A stretch of DNA of 64,000 bases from Octopus vulgaris (lineage: Eukaryota). Positions 3,195 through 59,659 of the stretch are shown in pieces. The notes below the pieces were generated by a model. The model saw only the letters and a list, made by a program, of their open reading frames with translations, did not search any database and was not told the DNA's origin. The position numbers were made by a program, and so were the translations under genes. The stretch is from contig OX597814.1 of the NCBI GenBank assembly GCA_951406725.2, forward strand, positions 63,736,001-63,800,000, written 5' to 3'. Position 1 is the first letter of the stretch. Every line of letters starts with the position of its first letter.

Positions 3195-3467
3195 GCACAA
3201 CAGCTTCCACAAGGACATGTGTTACATCAAAAATTCTTGGTTGGGGATGCAAATCCTCTCATTCACGTACGACATAATGCGGCAGCAGCATAGAATTGAA
3301 GCGTCCATCTCTTTCTTCTCTCAATGTAGAATGTACATTGAGAGAAGAAAGAGATGGACGCTTCAATTCTATGCTGCTGCCGCATTATGTCGTACGCGAA
3401 TGAGAGGATTTGCATCCCCAACCAAGAATTTTTGATGTAACACATGTCCTTGTGGAAGCTGTTGTGC

Positions 3468-3899: not shown

Positions 3900-6390
3900 A
3901 TAAAATGGCCACAGATTTTGTAGTATGGTTATTCATCAGAATTCTAACCAGCATTTTATAACTTGGATTCCGTAATTTCTTATATAAATTTACGATCTCA
4001 AATGAAGCAATATACGCATTTACGCATTTTCGTTCTGAATGTTTGCTAGATAATCGAGAATTTCCGTATCGATTCTTACAAAGCTCTCTATATGGCTTCA
4101 GCGAAATGCCTGGACAATACTCAGTGACATGTTTCGCATGCCGAACCTCCTATAATGGTAAGGATCTAGGTGTACAAATGTATCTATCAAGGGTCTGAAT
4201 AAGGGTTTTTTCAAAGGATGCAATGAAAGTATGTCAAATATTTCAATGTGTTTTATTTTGACCGATATTGCCTTTTGAAATACGCTGTTGATCCTTTAAT
4301 CCGACAAAGTTTGTCCCCTTTACGTTCATTCATGTAAATTTTTGCCACATGTATAGCTATCTAATTTGCTGATGATGCAGTGGGTTTGTTCACAGAATAA
4401 ATTTAGTTTATGATATCCTAAAACTAGGTTTGCATAAAAATAGGCGCATATACAAACTACACCTTAATTTTGTTGTTAGGCGGCCTGAAAGAACACAAAT
4501 AATACTCTGATGTCCATTTGTAACACGTTTCATAGTCATAAGGTCTGGTTATTCATTAGAAGTCTAACCAGCATTTGGTACCTTCGATTCAATAATTGCG
4601 TGCAATATTCTTTATAACTTTACAGTCTCAAATGAAGCAATATAAGCATTTTCATTCAAAGTGTTTACTAGCTAATCGAGAATATCATTATCGACTCTTG
4701 TAGAGCTCTGTATATGGCTTTAGCGATATGCGTGGACCATTACTCAGTGATATGTTTCGCATGCCGAGCCACCTATAATATGCTTCAAAATTTTTTTTAT
4801 CATTTGATGAGCAATATCAACATACATAACTTGAGTATAATATTTCGCATATTTGATTTACATTTGAGTATCTTTTGGTAATCCATAGAAGTTACTTGTT
4901 TTATACGATAGTCTCGTACTTTATTTGAAACTCTTTTGATAAAAATGTAATAAATTGGTGAATTGTTTCATAACTTTAGTACGTTTCTGGATTCCTCCTC
5001 CTAGCATGCTAACTACCCTGTTTGTATAATACCCTGTATCCATAAGAACAAAAATTTCCATACCGGTCTCTCGTAACTATATTTGTTTAATTTTAAATCC
5101 GTCAGAAATCTTTATTGTCCCTTGACAAATTTAGACTTGTATTGTTTCTATAGTTACTAGCCAAAATGCCGATATTTTTGCAAAATTTATCGATCAGTAC
5201 GTTTCCAATAGTTGGGATGGTATAAGCGAACTTTCGATGTTCGACGAAATTTCCAAAAACTTTCTGTATTTTCCGGTATATTTCATTCTTAATGTGTCTG
5301 TAAGTGTCACTCCTTTACTAAGTTTATATATATATATATATATGTATATTCGATTGTTAATATTTTATTCTAAATCTCTTAATACTGTGATACATTAGCT
5401 GTCCCTGTATTCCTGGTTTGGGTCTGAAATTTGATTAGTATTACGTCATTTCACTTCATTATATATATTATTAAATTTTATGATGCAATAATTTCTGTGA
5501 TCCTTTTATATTTTGTATCAATCAAAATGTTATATTTTTAAACTATTCCTTATAAATTGCTTTGTTCTTTGATTTTCCAACTCATATTTTTCTAAAATTT
5601 AGATTCCTACCTGCTGATCTATCGATTTGATTCTGCCAATGTTTACTTCTTTCTTGTGGTTTTAGAAACTACTTGTTCTAAGATATGGATTTATATTTGT
5701 CGATTTCGACCTTACAACTCAACGGTAAAGTATGTCTATGAAAATATTTCTTTTGTCATAAGACGTACTCTTTTGGCTTGTTTTGTTTTTGTCTGTGTCA
5801 GCTGGAACCACTGCGTCGTGTTTGTTTAATGATTTCAGCATAGTCTGTTTATATAATATTTTATTTTTTTAATAATTTCAGGATTGTCTTCCTGTTCTTC
5901 AAGATTTAAAACCCAACTTACACTCTTTTTAATTCTTTGTCATGAAACCTTTGTTCTAACATATTTGCTTCCATAATTTACAAATCTGGTTTAGTAAAAT
6001 CACATAACATTTTTTGAACTTCTAATAATTACTTATTCAATTATATTTTTGCATTTCTATTTACTTGCATTTTCTCTCGGTTTCTTTAATTCCATTTACC
6101 TTTTTATTTTCTCATGCAAATCTTTTGGTCGTAGTTATAAATATCTTGGTAAGACCAGTGAAATTCAGGTAAATCAACCTTCCATTTCTCAGCACATTCC
6201 ACAACCGAAAATTTCTGAGGCTAAAATGACGAGTTTGAATCTTCGATACAGGCTTATAGAATTCATGCATCACTTTCTGAAACGGTTCTCTTCAACCGAA
6301 TTTCACTCACAAGCATTGGCTTGGATTTAATCGAAGTTATAGAAATGACATTTTTTTACGATACCACATATTGGCATTGAATCCATAACC
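3900..6390 (-). pseudogene. Heavily decayed Penelope-like element RT and N-terminal region, with the RT segment present twice (~3930-4158 and ~4550-4780)
   Basis: Minus-strand translation gives IIGGSACETYH...LNENAYIASF, resembling the PLE RT motif PIIxGPxCETxxLS...LxSFDV. Many stops and frameshifts. Confidence 0.65.
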
Positions 6391-9164: not shown

Positions 9165-9232
9165 TGGACCAATGTTTTCAGACTTTTCTTTAGCAAATAA
9201 ATTAAGTTGCTAGGCGAAGTCTTCTTCAGCAG
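9165..9232 (-). ncRNA. Hammerhead-like motif (decayed stem III)
   Basis: Minus: CTG-CTGAAGA-AGACT...AGTCT-GAAA-acattgg-TC-CA. Confidence 0.6.
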
Positions 9233-9353
9233 GTACACCTTAGATTAAATATATATACACGAGGCAACCCAGTGTATGCCCCATGCTTATACATTCTAAT
9301 TTTTCAAATCTACCGCGCAAGCCTCGTGTATGTATATTTAATCTAAGGTGTAA

Positions 9354-9423
9354 CTGCTGAGGAAGACTTCGGCAAGCAAATTATTTTATTTCCTAAACAA
9401 ACAGTCTTAAACCATTGGTCCAG
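9354..9423 (+). ncRNA. Hammerhead-like motif (GAAA mutated to TAAA)
   Basis: CTG-CTGAGGA-AGACT...AGTCT-TAAA-CCATTGG-TC-CAG. The consensus of the two arms restores a canonical core. Confidence 0.6.
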
Positions 9424-9646: not shown

Positions 9647-10276
9647 TCAGAGAATGTCAAGACGTATGAGAGGTGAAGATATTTATTTAGCCACTTGCTA
9701 TCCTTAGGATATGCCATGGCAAAGATAAATAGATATTTAACTAAAGCACCAGAATGCATGCTCGAAGAACGGATATACCTAAAACCGTAGAAAAGTATGT
9801 TACATATTGAACTAAATCAGACATTGAAATGTATACACGCATAGTTATACATATATGCGCACATAAATACACGGTAGCACTCTCATATATGTGCATTTGC
9901 TTCTGTGTGTGAGTTAGTGAGTAAGTGCGTGTGTGTGTGTGTGTGTGTATGTGTGTGTGTGTGTATGTGTGTTTGCGTGTATGTGTGTGTTTGTGTTTGT
10001 GTGTGTGTGTGTGTGCGCACGGAGGTGTCTGTGGGTGTACCAAAACGAAATTAAAATATAACAATGTAAAAATGTAGCAAATACCGAAATCTTTCATTGA
10101 ATGCTTTTACCGTTTCCTTTCATTCAAAATAAAACATACTGAAATGATAAAATAACAAACTTCGTTAAGAGATAAAATTATATACTGTAAATAAATGCAG
10201 CATGGAAGATATTCATAAGCTATTCAAGAACACATAAAAACCTTTCGTTTCACTTCAACATTTGATTTTCATTTGT

Positions 10277-10321
10277 GTCAAAATATTTTCGTCGCTTTGA
10301 AACAGTGACCAGTTCACTGAC
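10277..10321 (-). ncRNA. Hammerhead-shaped motif with non-canonical core, in a probable PLE pLTR relic (~10040-10360)
   Basis: Minus: GTCA-GTGAACT-gGTCaCtgtttcaaaGcGAC-GAAA-ATAT-TT-TGAC. Stems I/II and palindromic stem III are present, but the core is not CUGANGA. Confidence 0.45.
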
Positions 10322-10799
10322 AAAACTTGGCGCTGCATCTGAGAGAGTAACAGCTAGTTCATGATATATTTGCGTTCATGTATGTACGTATGTATTTATG
10401 TATGCATTATGTATGTTTGTATGTATGTATGTATGTATGTATGTATGTATGTATGTATGTATGTATGTATGTATGTGTGCATGTATGAATCTATGTATGT
10501 ATGGATATATCTATATGTGTACGTGCGCATGCATGTATTTAAGCATGTCCGAAATAAATAATTCATATAGATAATTTGCAACGCTTGTCAGTAAGCAGAC
10601 AGCGTTTCCCAAAACCTGTCGGCGTATATAGTTTCAATAATGTACTCATTTTACTAAGGGCTATTTCAATATTCTAGGTAAACTATTTAATGGGTATGCA
10701 TTTTTCTTCACAACTAATGAATACTATTATATAGCATGAACGAGTGTGTGTGTGTGCGTGTGCGTGATGGATTTTCTTGTCAACGACAAATAAGGGTAT

Positions 10800-36667: not shown

Positions 36668-36777
36668 GTAACAGAAAACAGGAATTTCGATTATCCCCAC
36701 GTGGTGAGTTGCAATGCATATAAGAAATTAAGAAAGGAAAATACGCACACTTACATAGTTTTAATATAATTCTTAAT

Positions 36778-36812
36778 ATATCGACCGGTTTCGCTTTCGC
36801 TATTCATGATAT
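36778..36812 (-). ncRNA. 35-nt ultra-minimal hammerhead-shaped motif with mutated core
   Basis: Minus: ATATC-ATGAATA-GCgaaaGC-GAAA-CCGG-TC-GATAT. Confidence 0.55.
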
Positions 36813-37646
36813 AATGTTTTACTTATTTGAATATATATTTTTTCTTAAGAAGAAATTTGATCCATGTTGTGTGTGATGAAATTCACGAGTGAATGACTTC
36901 ACAAGTAGATAAATAAAGGGAGGTAATTGGTTGTTGTTATTATTGTTATTGTTGTGGGTTAGGGAGATAACTGTTCAGCTTTCGGTAATGGGTGGGGATT
37001 ATATATGTGTACAGACAGAGAGAAGTTTCAAAAACCTTGTTTAGTAGGGGATTTACGTACAGTGATGTAATCGTGTATTTAAATGTGTAAAAAGATAAAA
37101 GTTGGTTATGCGTGCATATTAAGACGCATATGTATATATGCGTGTATATATGTATATGTATGTATGCATATATATGCATGTATATATATCTATATATATG
37201 TATGTATATGAACAAACAAGCGTATTTGCGCATACATGTATGTATGTATGCAAGTGTGTCTGAGTATGTATGTATCTGAAGAACCGTTATGACTAGATAC
37301 ATTTCCTTTTGGGAATGCTATTGTGTATAACGCACTAGTTTAAAATTTCCTTAACCAAGGGACATTCATTGATTGATTTTGGATCTGTATTTTTTGTATT
37401 TACACATTTTGTACATATATATTTCCCATAATCGGATATTCTACTTCTGTTATTTACTTTACATTTATATTATATTTTTAAAACTTTCTTAATTTTATTT
37501 TATTTCCACTTTTACTTAATTTACTTTTCATTTTATTATATCTTATTCTTCACTCTACCTTATTGCCCATTATATTCTAACTGATCTGTTAACCCTTCAC
37601 CCACACATATCAATAAAATATAACTCCTTATTTATATATAACTCCT

Positions 37647-50394: not shown

Positions 50395-51640
50395 AGAAGA
50401 AAACGCAAAAACCAACCAGGGCAGAACAAATATCTCGTCATTTACAATAATTCAATTAAGGTGAATTTGAAGTCTTACAGCCGTTTCAGGGATAACCCAA
50501 GTAGTAGGCTAGAATGTCCACGCACTGGGTATACCGTCATCAGAGACAAGGTATGAAATTTCTAGGCAGTGAAATTTAGAGTTTACAAAGAATAAAACAG
50601 AAGAATAAAAGAATAAACAGAAGAATAAAGAGTAAATGTAATTAGAAAAATACAGGCGGGTGAATAACGTTAACAACTCATCGTTTGTTAAGGGATATGG
50701 ATGTTGGTCAGAACTTACATGAAGTTAAAGGTCCATGTTAAAATCCTAGGTAAATCCAAGTGGTATTTTCGCAGTATTTTGAATAACGTATTTATATTGA
50801 AGCGATAGATAGTATGTAAACGTGTATGTAGAGCGTGATAGTAAGATAGACATAAATGGGTTTTGTGAGTGGGTGTATATGGGAAGAAAAAGAGAGAAAG
50901 AGAAAGAAGAGAAAGGAATAAAAATAAGATATGGTAAAATGGGTAAAAAATAAAAATGAAATAAAGGTAATGTTTGAGATACGTCGGTATTGCATCAGGG
51001 TGAGAGGTCAAACGTTAAAGTTTCAATAAAGTGCGGGTGGACGGCCAATCTATGTAAGATTACAAAGAACAATAATTTAGTGGTTAGTACAGATATCTAA
51101 AAGTATATTTCAAGCTTAATAAGAATTAAATGATATAAGTTAAAGGATTAAGGATTAAAGTTAAAACTTAAATCAAAATTAAAAGCTAATACTTAAAATT
51201 ATAAACTAAGAGCACTAAAAATTATTGAATTGGAACTAGCTAACTTCTCAGATACTTATGTTGATAGAGAGGTAGAGAAAAAGGAAAAGGAAAAAAAATT
51301 CGTACATATATTGTTACAACCGTGTATGGACATATGCACGTTTTATGCATGTTAATGTTGTTTACATTTGGACCGATGGTGCGATAGAACTTATGATGAC
51401 ATGTAGCGAAACCTTTGTGCTGTTTATTTAGTAATTGCGGTGAATTATTTATTAATATTTGGAGGTCTTCTTTTACGCATAGTCCACATGTGGATCGCTG
51501 GTCTTTGCATGGCAAACCTCTTTCCTCAAAATCATATTATATTTCGGCCTATATTATTATAGACCGTCTGAGGTGTGAAATTTTGCGTGCATTTAATTTC
51601 AACTATTCTCATTTATAAGTGTATTGCTTATTACCAGGTA
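50395..51640 (-). mobile_element. 5'-truncated PLE (GIY-YIG tail + pLTR), same family as 21530-23060
   Basis: ORF 51240-51515 STCGLCVKEDLQILINNSPQLLNKQHKGFATCHH. The pLTR aligns with 21540-21960. Confidence 0.85.
50472..50547 (-). ncRNA. Type I hammerhead ribozyme
   Basis: Minus: GTCT-CTGATGA-cGGtATACCCA...TGGGTTATCCct-GAAA-CGGCTG-TA-AGAC. Confidence 0.78.
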
Positions 51641-51822
51641 AACTAATACTGACTCTTCAAAGAATACTTCAAAATTAACTAAAAGAGCAGTTACTGTTTA
51701 TATCTCGCTCAGAGATTTGTTATTCTTTTCGAAGGGATTTTCTACGCTAGTGACTGTGGTTACTGTGAAAATCTATATATCCAGCCTGTAGAGAGAGTCC
51801 CTCAACGAAGAGCGGTGCTTAC

Positions 51823-51865
51823 CATACGTTGACAAGAGGCAATAACCTCGAAACCGGTCCGTGTG
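51823..51865 (+). ncRNA. Minimal hammerhead-shaped motif (core TTGACAA) in a GC-rich island 51785-52013
   Basis: CATACG-TTGACAA-GAGGcaataaCCTC-GAAA-CCGG-TC-CGTGTG. 6-bp stem I, 4-bp stem II, palindromic stem III. Confidence 0.65.
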
Positions 51866-52014
51866 TAGTATCCGTATCTTCGGGGAGGCTGATCTCCCTT
51901 TGCAAGCTGGCAAGGACACCGAGATGGTGTCAGCTCTTCTGGTGACGTTGATGTTCGCTTGGGGCTAAATGCATCAGTAACACCCCCACCACCCCGCCCC
52001 GACCCTAGCCACAC

Positions 52015-53136
52015 TCAGATGGCTGATCCCCCTTATGTTAAACTAAAAGTTAGTTTTCTTGAAAATGAGCAAAATTCGGCATCGTAGTGCTACCAAGTAC
52101 CGACAGAAAAAGGTTTTAGCTCACAATGACATGGTTGCTACATTAGATGATGACGCTCTAGCTTTATCAAAAGTGCAAACGTGGTCAGCTTAATATAGGA
52201 TGGCAAGAGTATATTGAAGATGACGCAACGTCTGGACGTCCTGCAACTGTCACTATTGAGGAAAATATTGATCATGTTCACCACATGTGATAGATGACAG
52301 GTGATTGACTATAAATCAAATAACTAATGCTATAAGCATATACCGTGAAGCACTTGAAATTATTCTGCACAATGCACTTGGTATGACAGAGGTTTCTCTG
52401 CTCTTTGGGTACTCGGTTTTCTGACACCTCATCAAAAGCGCACTAGGTTGATCACATTACGGGAAAATCTAACATTGTTTGAGGTAGCTCCAAGTAGTTT
52501 CCTTGAACGTTCCCTAACCCTGAATGAGCGCTAGGTTTCGCACTTTGAACCAGAGACGAAGAGATAATTCATGCAGTGGAAACACCCCTCCTCGTGTGTT
52601 CCAAAAAGGCCAAGGTCGTCTGCCGGGAAGGTGATGGCCTCGGTATTTTGGGATGTAAAATGCATTGTTTTTATTAACTATCTTCAAAACGGCCACATCA
52701 TGAATATAGAGTATTATGTCAACTTGCTGAAGCAGATACGAAAGGGAAACTGACGAAAAGTGTCTTGTTTAATCAGGATAATAGTCCAGCAGACAAAACT
52801 TTGGTTTCAAATGGCGACTGTGCACGGCTGCGGCATTGAACTGGTCGATCACCAACTCTATTCTCCTCATTTGGCCCCATCTGACTATTATTTGTTCTCA
52901 ATCATGAAAAACGGCTTGGCTGGGAACTATTATCGCAGTGATAATGATATAACACCTGCTGTTGACATTTTTGACGAACATGATGAAAGCTTCTTCGCGA
53001 ATGGGTTCCAAGCATTGCAACAGCGATGAGAAAAGTATGGGAACCTCAAGATGACTATGTTAAAAATTAACCTCATTTTGTCACATTCTATGAGCGTACC
53101 ATGGTCAGCCTATGGACTTTTCAACCGAACCTCGTA
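52015..53136 (+). mobile_element. Decayed mariner (DD34D-type) transposon, right TIR retained
   Basis: EDDATSGRPATVTIEENIDHVH, SAGKVMASVFWDVKCIVFINYL and YSPHLAPSDYYLF. Ends ACTTTTCAACCGAACCTCGTA. Confidence 0.88.
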
Positions 53137-53242
53137 TATTTTATCGATAAACAAACCTTATTTTTTTAAGTTTGTGGAGAAATTCTAATTGATATACTTT
53201 GAAAAATGTATATACATTACCTATGACCATGCGTAAATATAT

Positions 53243-54626: not shown

Positions 54627-55053
54627 GTATGTATGCATGTATGTATGTATGTATGTATGTATGTATGTATGTATGTATGTATGTATGTATATATCTCCGG
54701 TCGGTTAAACTGCCCGATCTAAGGCAGCTTTTCCACGCCAGATATCACGATCCTCCAGATCCTTCCAGAAGTTGATCGATAAATGAAATTCTTCTTAAGC
54801 GAATACATGTTTGTTAACGTGTGGGTTTCCAACGATGGAGATCATTTCATATTTCATTCTTGCTTCTCCATCAGTGCCTTGTTTAACGAGTTTCTTCGCT
54901 GATTACCCAGATGATGGTAGGAAGACTACGAAACAGTAATTGCTTTGTAGATTGTTGCTGCCCAGAAAGAATGACAACTGCACGAACATTTCTTAAGCAT
55001 TACCGTCAACGTTCTTTTCAAGTCTTTTGTTTGATGCCCACGCCAGAGAGGAG

Positions 55054-55115
<62 letters not shown>

Positions 55116-55119
55116 GGGA

Positions 55120-55715
55120 ATAATACCAGCTTGCTGATAGACATTGCAGTCCCTTCTGATCAAAATATTGTCAAAAAAGAAGTGGAGAAATTGTCAAAGT
55201 ACAAAAACCTCGAAAATGAAGTATTTAAAGTGTTGAGCATGAAGGTAATAACAATACCAACAATATACGGAGCATTAGGCATGATAAAAAATATATGAAC
55301 AAAAACGTAGAAGCTATTCCTGGATTTTCAACACTATACTCTGTTCAAATATAGCCCTGCTAGGTACAGCCCGCATCCTACGCAAGGCACTATTAATCTA
55401 ATAATACAACCTAAACAAAACAACCCACAAATACAAGACACACCGTATACAGCCTTTACCTAGTGAAATAAACTTCCACCAGCAAGCTAGGACACCAAAG
55501 CATTACACACTCAACACACAGTACAAGGAGTAACATAACAAAAGACTGCATCATACCTCAAGGGAAAAAAATAATGCAGTACAATACCGGGAAGAGTTTG
55601 CACACTCCCAACAGCCGAAAAGAACACACAATGCTGCGCATACCCCAGCAACATAGAGGTCTAGCAGGTGATACAGTAGAAATTTGCCTCAATCTACCAA
55701 ATATTGAAGAGTTAC

Positions 55716-59534: not shown

Positions 59535-59659
59535 AAGGTGTGTCTTTTCCAGTGTAAACACCTGTAGGATCTTTCGACGATTGTGTTTATTAAAGGGCCT
59601 TTAATAAACACAATTGTCGAAAGATCCTACAGGTGTTTACACTGGAAAAGACACACCTT
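59535..59659. repeat. 125-bp near-perfect palindrome (62-bp arms, 1-nt centre, one mismatch)
   Basis: AAGGTGTGTCTTTTCCAGTGTAAACACCTGTAGGATCTTTCGAC..TAAAGG-G-CCTTTA..GTCGAAAGATCCTACAGGTGTTTACACTGGAAAAGACACACCTT. Confidence 0.95.

Follow-up and report, generated by a model that had tools for sequence, protein, structure and literature searches.

Hammerhead motif and host element at the locus

A type I hammerhead motif lies on the forward strand of the window, by which we mean the whole 64,000-nucleotide stretch of octopus DNA that was analysed. The motif resides in one monomer of a tandem-forming, non-coding element inserted in the 5' part of an old mariner-like transposon (Table 1). Helices I to III, U4, G5, A6 and N7, A9, G12, A13 and A14, the A15.1-U16.1 pair and H17 are all present, and the structure is open at helix I; the consensus C3-G8 pair is absent, with U3-A8 found instead. 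A sequence-only reading of this DNA had proposed the stems CATACG/CGTGTG, GAGG/CCTC and ACCGGT around TTGACAA, with T and A at positions 3 and 8, and these are indeed present in the sequence and in descriptor scans. Its description of the ribozyme as minimal is only partly right, as a 6-bp helix I, a 4-bp helix II with a 6-nt loop and a palindromic helix III constitute the canonical metazoan type I layout. Taken alone, this single motif is ordinary, since natural U3-A8 hammerheads, rightly described in that reading as known, have already been published (Perreault et al. 2011, PMC3088659; the min-HHR of the Schistosoma Cercyon Penelope-like element (PLE), PMC4209133).

Table 1. Positions of the hammerhead motifs, the host element and its surroundings in the window
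Feature	Position	Strand	Detail or basis
Old, broken mariner-like DNA transposon with the retrozyme inserted in its 5' part	51570–53138	+	Contiguous flanks in relatives
Target-site duplication, left copy	51677–51685	+	9 bp, repeated at 52041–52049; empty sites
One monomer of a ~358-bp tandem non-coding retroelement (putative non-LTR retrozyme / non-autonomous PLE)	51684–52040	+	Boundaries from 29 other loci, 94–98% identical; empty-site comparison
PLE-type tail	51684–51727	+	41–44 nt separating two alternative 3' ends of genomic copies; scored 3' ends
Target-site duplication, right copy	52041–52049	+	9 bp; 3'-end scoring, empty sites
Type I hammerhead	51823–51865	+	Sequence, descriptor scans, covariation across subfamilies
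Helix I distal extension	51814–51872	+	51814–51819 with 51867–51872, past a 3-nt/1-nt bulge; fold and covariation
Stem I, CATACG/CGTGTG	51823–51828/51860–51865	+	6 bp including one G-U
Core, TTGACAA	51829–51835	+	U3 = 51829, A8 = 51834
Stem II, GAGG/CCTC	51836–51839/51846–51849	+	4 bp, loop 6 nt
G12-A14 (GAA)	51850–51852	+	
Stem III, palindrome ACCGGT	51853–51858	+	
C17	51859	+	Predicted cleavage site 51859/51860
A3-U8 hammerhead of a different family, 3' end of GIY-YIG-type PLEs	36777–36813	-	Descriptor scan; PLE protein matches
Decayed copy (A9 to T) of a very abundant G3-C8 family with AATATT stem III	10276–10322	-	Descriptor scan, family matches

A descriptor scan of the 64-kb window in which positions 3 and 8 were left free yielded the U3-A8, A3-U8 and G3-C8 motifs of Table 1, the last with T in place of A9. 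No match of the grade of the U3-A8 motif occurred in 60 dinucleotide-shuffled windows. The sequence-only reading had also counted a canonical C/G pair, and hence four pair types, in the window, but two descriptor scans found no canonical C3-G8 hammerhead there, and the window holds three. No hammerhead appears among the 150 of 221 Rfam matches listed for the window, none lies at 51600–52100, and RF00163 gives no match at the gathering score in 10 loci. A sister subfamily that does carry C3-G8 aligns to the full Rfam Hammerhead_1 model yet scores only 12.3 bits against a cut-off of 34, and thus the Rfam miss reflects the model, by which the whole family is overlooked. The helix lengths, 6-nt loop 2 and bulged helix I of the window motif resemble the Rfam consensus. 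The best predicted fold of the monomer mispairs the hammerhead core.

Copies of the 357-bp unit occur on many contigs of the 2.8-Gb source genome, are 94–98% identical, and form partial tandems and 5'-to-5' inverted arms. Monomers of 353–360 bp are arranged head-to-tail in arrays, each with a type I hammerhead; the window copy is a lone monomer. The unit had earlier been placed at 51785–52013 and called GC-rich, but it extends further on both sides (Table 1) and the retrozyme has 49–50% GC. It is non-coding, its longest stop-free stretch being 70 codons on the minus strand. All 80 scored 3' ends of copies, from 51 loci, fall at two positions, with 46 at the end of the unit (52040) and 34 at 41–44 nt beyond it, and one end of each kind is seen in 28 of the 29 inverted pairs for which both ends were scored. 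(TA)n adjoins 60 of these 80 ends, compared with a background of 3.7% of window positions, and no poly(A) end occurs in the listed flanks of retrozyme copies. The tail motif has 2,805 genome matches.

The flanks of the window copy are contiguous in 12 of 14 related mariner-like loci, and in two empty mariner-like copies (L192 and L198) they overlap by 9 bp. The mariner-like element carries transposase-like motifs (by eye), and the one 91-aa piece searched gave no Pfam match. Judging from the anatomy of its copies, with partial tandems, inverted 5'-truncated arms, a tail at one end only and AT-rich/(TA)n targets, the host is a PLE-type non-LTR retrozyme. It had been described from the letters of the window as non-PLE-looking, but the 3' ends, inverted arms and (TA)n adjacency present the full PLE end signature. 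Two unusual arrangements were also observed: a 119-bp tandem array at G000:C1:11168463-11169078 (L104) consists of the element 3' end, the tail and a (TA)n run without a hammerhead, and four tandem units of ~1.38 kb at G000:C1:94322210-94326395 (L154) each combine part of a U3·G8 retrozyme with microsatellites and a fragment of a LINE-like RT.

The 3-8 pair across subfamilies and families

U3-A8 is fixed in the window subfamily. All 38 motifs in the closest copies (28 loci) read TTGACAA, and when positions 3, 7 and 8 are left free there are 118 matches; the 100 listed comprise 99 with U3-A8 and a single C3·A8. The sequence-only reading had allowed that consensus sequences might revert to C3-G8; the window subfamily stays U3-A8, but a sister subfamily 88% identical to it has C3-G8. 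CpG decay was rejected as the source of U3-A8 in the window subfamily, given that C3 lies outside a CpG and the state is fixed, although such decay may ease the change from G8 to A8.

Genome-wide, motifs with an ACCGGT stem III give 4,082 matches versus 10 for a reversed control. Their 3-8 states are U3-A8 (2,521), A3-U8 (1,146), G3-C8 (108), C3-G8 (106) and other (201, by subtraction). A descriptor search with both positions free had been proposed as a check on the diversity of covariant-core hammerheads in this genome, and in its outcome paired combinations dominate, with 3,881 of the 4,082 (95.1%) being Watson-Crick. C3-G8 accounts for 1,596 of the 13,112 matches over the three classes counted, these numbers being copy counts rather than independent events and leaving out canonical families beyond the counted classes. 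All four Watson-Crick 3-8 pairs define multi-copy families in this genome, as the proposed diversity had anticipated, and positions 3 and 8 covary at the family level rather than decaying at random.

The other two motifs in the window belong to other families. The A3-U8 motif, correctly noticed from the sequence at 36778, has a stem II of 2 bp, and PLE protein matches of its family lie upstream in the same orientation at L040 and L041 and beside both arms in L153. The G/C motif noticed at 10277 stands at the family level, where G3-C8 is the rule, but not as a sound copy, since the window sequence has T for A9; most of 21 aligned relatives keep A9. This AATATT family has 6,308 matches, and 95 of the first 100 are G3-C8 (by eye). 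Its copies (L062-L080) are short, with a seemingly fixed start beside (TA)n and two 3' ends about 45 nt apart; those inspected revealed no coding partner. Both A3-U8 and G3-C8 motifs occur downstream of GIY-YIG-region matches in the same orientation (L040, L041, L049, L057, L060). At L043, L049, L055 and L059, A3-U8 and G3-C8 motifs share nearly the same stem II and upstream flank, and this resemblance suggests a second compensatory switch, between G-C and A-U, in an unrelated PLE lineage.

Hammerheads also accompany coding elements. An abundant young RT plus GIY-YIG Penelope-like family (L038:1661-4012; L169:855-5241, minus) carries a U3-A8 hammerhead and, judged from the first 100, makes up most of the 2,521 ACCGGT U3-A8 matches; in L169 the motif lies in two direct repeats 4.4 kb apart, and a 436-codon open stretch precedes the RT frame. 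A further family (L167:708 and 1436, L168:1227) has the canonical CTGAAGA core and an 8-nt stem III, and in L167 it lies about 60 nt from G3-C8 motifs. An RT plus GIY-YIG PLE in this genome has a 784-aa open frame, a CxxxxCxxC linker (by eye), which is of the Neptune type as described in PMC8557442, two 3' ends and (TA)n flanks; its tail differs from that of the retrozyme. A tail shared with the retrozyme is likewise absent from the autonomous families inspected (one designated family A, the A3-U8 family and the G3-C8 ACCGGT family, as far as listed), and none of the 20 loci examined among the tail-motif matches holds an autonomous element carrying the retrozyme unit. The window itself also contains a decayed PLE-like RT fragment at 4615–5049 (minus; 31% identity to the L038 protein, E 3e-10) and, at 54887–55298 (+), a stretch resembling by eye the C-terminal part of a restriction-endonuclease-type non-LTR element, with no Pfam match. 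Long near-perfect hairpins with sub-threshold Rfam microRNA matches, at 59544–59650, 9226–9360 and 3270–3392, are probably inverted repeats of small transposons.

The retrozyme superfamily of 353–360-bp elements, searched through its class of 8-nt stems III, gives 2,722 matches (control, 2). Its core states are C3-G8 in 1,490 cases, U3·G8 in 639, U3-A8 in 507, C3·A8 in 35 and other in 51. If positions 3 and 8 were independent, about 310 C3·A8 motifs would be expected, and the 35 observed occur singly and scattered, most of them in backbones of C3-G8 type. The U3·G8 matches form coherent subfamilies with common loops and palindromes, in which tandem and inverted copies agree and copies are 94.5–98.8% identical between loci (2–7 loci per group). 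Across the superfamily, the core state agrees in 45 of the 49 loci with more than one motif. U3·G8 is a fixed state in young subfamilies. These wobble subfamilies, which the sequence-only reading did not notice, carry the most information.

Trees were built without the hammerhead columns, from 48 and 74 rows thinned by hand and about 320 columns; they are short, unrooted and could be affected by mosaicism, and the 74-row tree has one mis-anchored row (L112). The 48-row tree, less one C·A singleton, requires position 3 to change 2 times and position 8 to change 6 times, and a single origin is rejected both for C-G (p-AU 2e-6) and for U·G (p-AU 2e-12). In the 74-row tree, successive rows of one starred clade are U3-A8, then U3·G8, and finally a young C3-G8 clade in which U4C is also present. 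The window subfamily has its C3-G8 sister embedded within U3-A8 rows, where sampling shows no U·G step, and for two switches between C-G and U-A the sampled rows include no U·G intermediate. About 10 state changes fall on the tree, or 11 when one mis-anchored row and one singleton are counted. From these relationships, U3·G8 is likely a wobble intermediate in the evolution of the core pair, and the genome likely records the stepwise evolution of a ribozyme core. A bolder reading, which we put forward tentatively and do not favour at present, is that one genome keeps the full 3-8 sequence space, with four Watson-Crick pairs and U3·G8 all active and transposing, that one lineage walked from U-A via a fixed U·G wobble to C-G while avoiding C·A, and that the PLE protein or the dimer fold relaxes the core. 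If this were true, canonical searches would miss most hammerheads in such genomes.

Predicted dimer cleavage, mobilisation and competing explanations

The fold of the motif is preserved through extensive sequence change. Among 16 hand-picked subfamily sequences, 94.3% of cells are paired and 11 of 21 pairs have changed on both sides, compared with at most 49% paired when the partners are slid against each other. In the distal helix I extension, 4 of the 6 pairs have changed on both sides. Because the 3-8 state guided the choice of sequences, this set offers no independent test of 3-8 covariation. In the first 100 matches with 8-nt stems III, 84 stems are strict palindromes of six kinds (by eye) and 8 more self-pair with G-U, against an expectation of 1 in 16 for four free bases. 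A double-hammerhead fold is better than two monomer folds by 5.1–8.5 kcal/mol in all six real arrays; relative to the free minimum it is equal in three arrays, less than 1 kcal/mol off in one and 5.5 above in two. Circular monomer folds are 61–64% paired, with z scores of -3.1 to -5.6 versus 40 shuffles in each of the six arrays. Contigs from four sequencing runs, of which three are guessed to be RNA, match portions of the unit, and the head-to-tail joint is present in two; such contigs cannot demonstrate expression, cleavage or circles.

Variants were observed elsewhere in the core and in stem II. A young retrozyme subfamily (G000:C1:31009474-31013493 and L171-L175) has a C3 C4 G5 A6 core, and thus U4C, together with a ACCATGGT palindrome, and its arrays are long, with 12 copies at G000:C1:31009474-31013493. 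In the L123, L127, L128, L108 and L117 subfamilies, U·U or C·A replaces G10.1-C11.1 at the opening of stem II. The axolotl retrozyme described in PMC7229834 also has U·U at this position.

We consider it probable that the window monomer belongs to a tandem non-coding retroelement that uses a PLE enzyme and whose hammerhead is predicted to cut as a dimer, with C-G, U·G and U-A subfamilies existing because selection keeps the pairing and not the letters. According to this model, a tandem array would be transcribed, the palindromic stems III of two neighbouring hammerheads would pair to form a double hammerhead, and cutting after C17 would release a monomer of ~358 nt, which may then form a circle. 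A PLE reverse transcriptase/GIY-YIG protein would then nick AT-rich DNA and start reverse transcription at two sites 41–44 nt apart, and these two start sites would generate the tail and the inverted arm; the two 3' ends of PLEs have been explained in the same way (PMC11167929). In the active hammerhead, nucleotide 8 contributes its 2'-OH and is kept in position through its pairing to nucleotide 3 (PMC6155905, PMC3884650, PMC8495972), and therefore any pair that keeps this geometry could work. On this basis the core would tolerate U3·G8 as an intermediate, but not C3·A8. The window monomer, being single, has no partner in cis and is thus probably inert.

In one alternative explanation the element does move with a PLE, but the template RNA retains the hammerhead fold for a structural or protein-binding role, and cleavage by the non-canonical cores is poor or absent. 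For a lizard PLE, hammerhead cleavage was unnecessary for insertion in vitro and was protein-assisted, and no RNA reads ended at the cut site (PMC11167929). In a scan of a type III hammerhead only the G3-C8 swap rescued activity, other changes in the region being low (PMC9901934). A further point against the favoured model is that 8 of 9 Xenopus retrozyme dimers did not cleave (bioRxiv 10.64898/2026.07.22.740005). The octopus motif itself is relaxed, with U4C at about 40 of 82 distinct free-core sites (by eye), U4C subfamilies in arrays of up to 12 copies, and the U·U or C·A openings of stem II in several subfamilies. However, G5, A6 and A9 are fixed at the subfamily level, departing at only 4 scattered sites of about 82 (by eye), and both the palindrome and the 3-8 pair, which come together solely in the active or dimer fold, have been retained through many changes. 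We regard this explanation as rather unlikely.

A further alternative is that the 3-8 states were founder effects, whereby a few master copies carried neutral changes, helped by CpG decay at C7-G8, and that C3·A8 lineages are absent by chance. With only about 10 state changes on the tree, lineage-level statistics are thin, and template switching between subfamilies could mimic a stepwise path. Nevertheless, CpG decay favours C3·A8, the very state that is seen only in scattered copies, and unrelated families independently hold A-U, G-C and U-A, with Watson-Crick pairs prevailing throughout the ACCGGT-type motifs; chance of this kind seems to us a very improbable account. A dependence on PLEs would itself be mistaken if the host were a LINE 5'UTR, as the sequence-only reading had guessed, or a SINE. 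In favour of such an origin, the element is 5'-truncated, non-coding and about 50% GC and has a target duplication. Against this are monomers joined head-to-tail, the pair of 3' ends with a tail, the inverted arms and insertion at (TA)n, the lack of a LINE ORF and of any poly(A) or LINE-derived 3' end in the listed flanks, and the mariner-like identity of the window flanks. This PLE end anatomy largely refutes a LINE or SINE origin, to which we assign almost no credence.

Comparison with known systems

The core of the hammerhead is generally taken to be almost invariable, CUGANGA being the sequence on which standard descriptors and Rfam models rest. In this genome, thousands of recently mobile copies carry U3-A8, A3-U8, G3-C8 or U3·G8, and close sister subfamilies differ at positions 3 and 8. 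These copies provide a natural series with which to ask whether PLEs and retrozymes experience any selection for cleavage, and how tertiary base pairs within catalytic cores change over evolution. Neither U3-A8 nor this class of element is new, but the series of 3-8 core pairs is unusually complete, with a likely wobble intermediate. In the literature covered, neither natural families with A3-U8 or G3-C8, nor a lineage in which U3·G8 is fixed, nor a U-A/U·G/C-G path was described; earlier work on PLE hammerhead variants may pre-empt part of this. A term search of supplement file 2 of PMC4209133 returned no core with A3 or G3, and Fig. S3 of that paper includes one U3·G8 motif, from Saccoglossus, apparently unremarked in the main text.

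The octopus elements resemble the metazoan non-LTR retrozymes described in PMC7229834 and in a 2026 preprint that derives non-LTR retrozymes from PLE repeats (bioRxiv 10.64898/2026.07.22.740005). Shared features are non-coding tandem monomers of 150–450 bp (350–390 bp in mussel) with one type I hammerhead per unit, a short palindromic helix III, highly self-paired RNA and a proposed dependence on PLEs. The octopus subfamily differs in its 49–50% GC, compared with under 45% typical of metazoan retrozymes, and in having U3-A8, U3·G8 or U4C in many subfamilies, whereas the surveys of retrozymes used canonical and minimal descriptors. PLE dependence is proposed here from the anatomy of insertion ends and not from sequence homology as in those papers. 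It has recently been proposed that PLE enzymes mobilise animal retrozymes, and this anatomy, from an invertebrate-type genome, supports that proposal directly.

Penelope-like elements of the Neptune type (PMC8557442, PMC11167929) likewise show partial tandems, an inverted 5'-truncated arm, (TA)n or AT-rich targets, a hammerhead in the repeat and a 30–40-bp tail at one end only. Unlike these, the octopus retrozyme has no ORF, its tail is 41–44 nt, and no autonomous partner with matching ends was found. The window motif also differs from the PLE min-HHR as described by Cervera (2014, PMC4209133), which has little or no helix III, a short helix I, a long helix II and an extra nucleotide after A9; a 6-bp helix I, a 4-bp helix II and a 6-nt palindrome are found here, with no extra nucleotide. 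The U3-A8 hammerhead of S. mansoni Cercyon shows the same compensatory change at positions 3 and 8 and a PLE association, with about 1,300 matches (PMC4209133). Unlike that min-HHR, octopus U3-A8 has a canonical-type architecture and exists beside C3-G8 and U3·G8 sister subfamilies. Studies of engineered C3G/G8C swaps (PMC8495972, PMC9901934, PMC11167929) show that pairing matters more than the bases themselves. Those are laboratory mutants, whereas G3-C8 in this genome is a natural state, found in families with thousands of copies.
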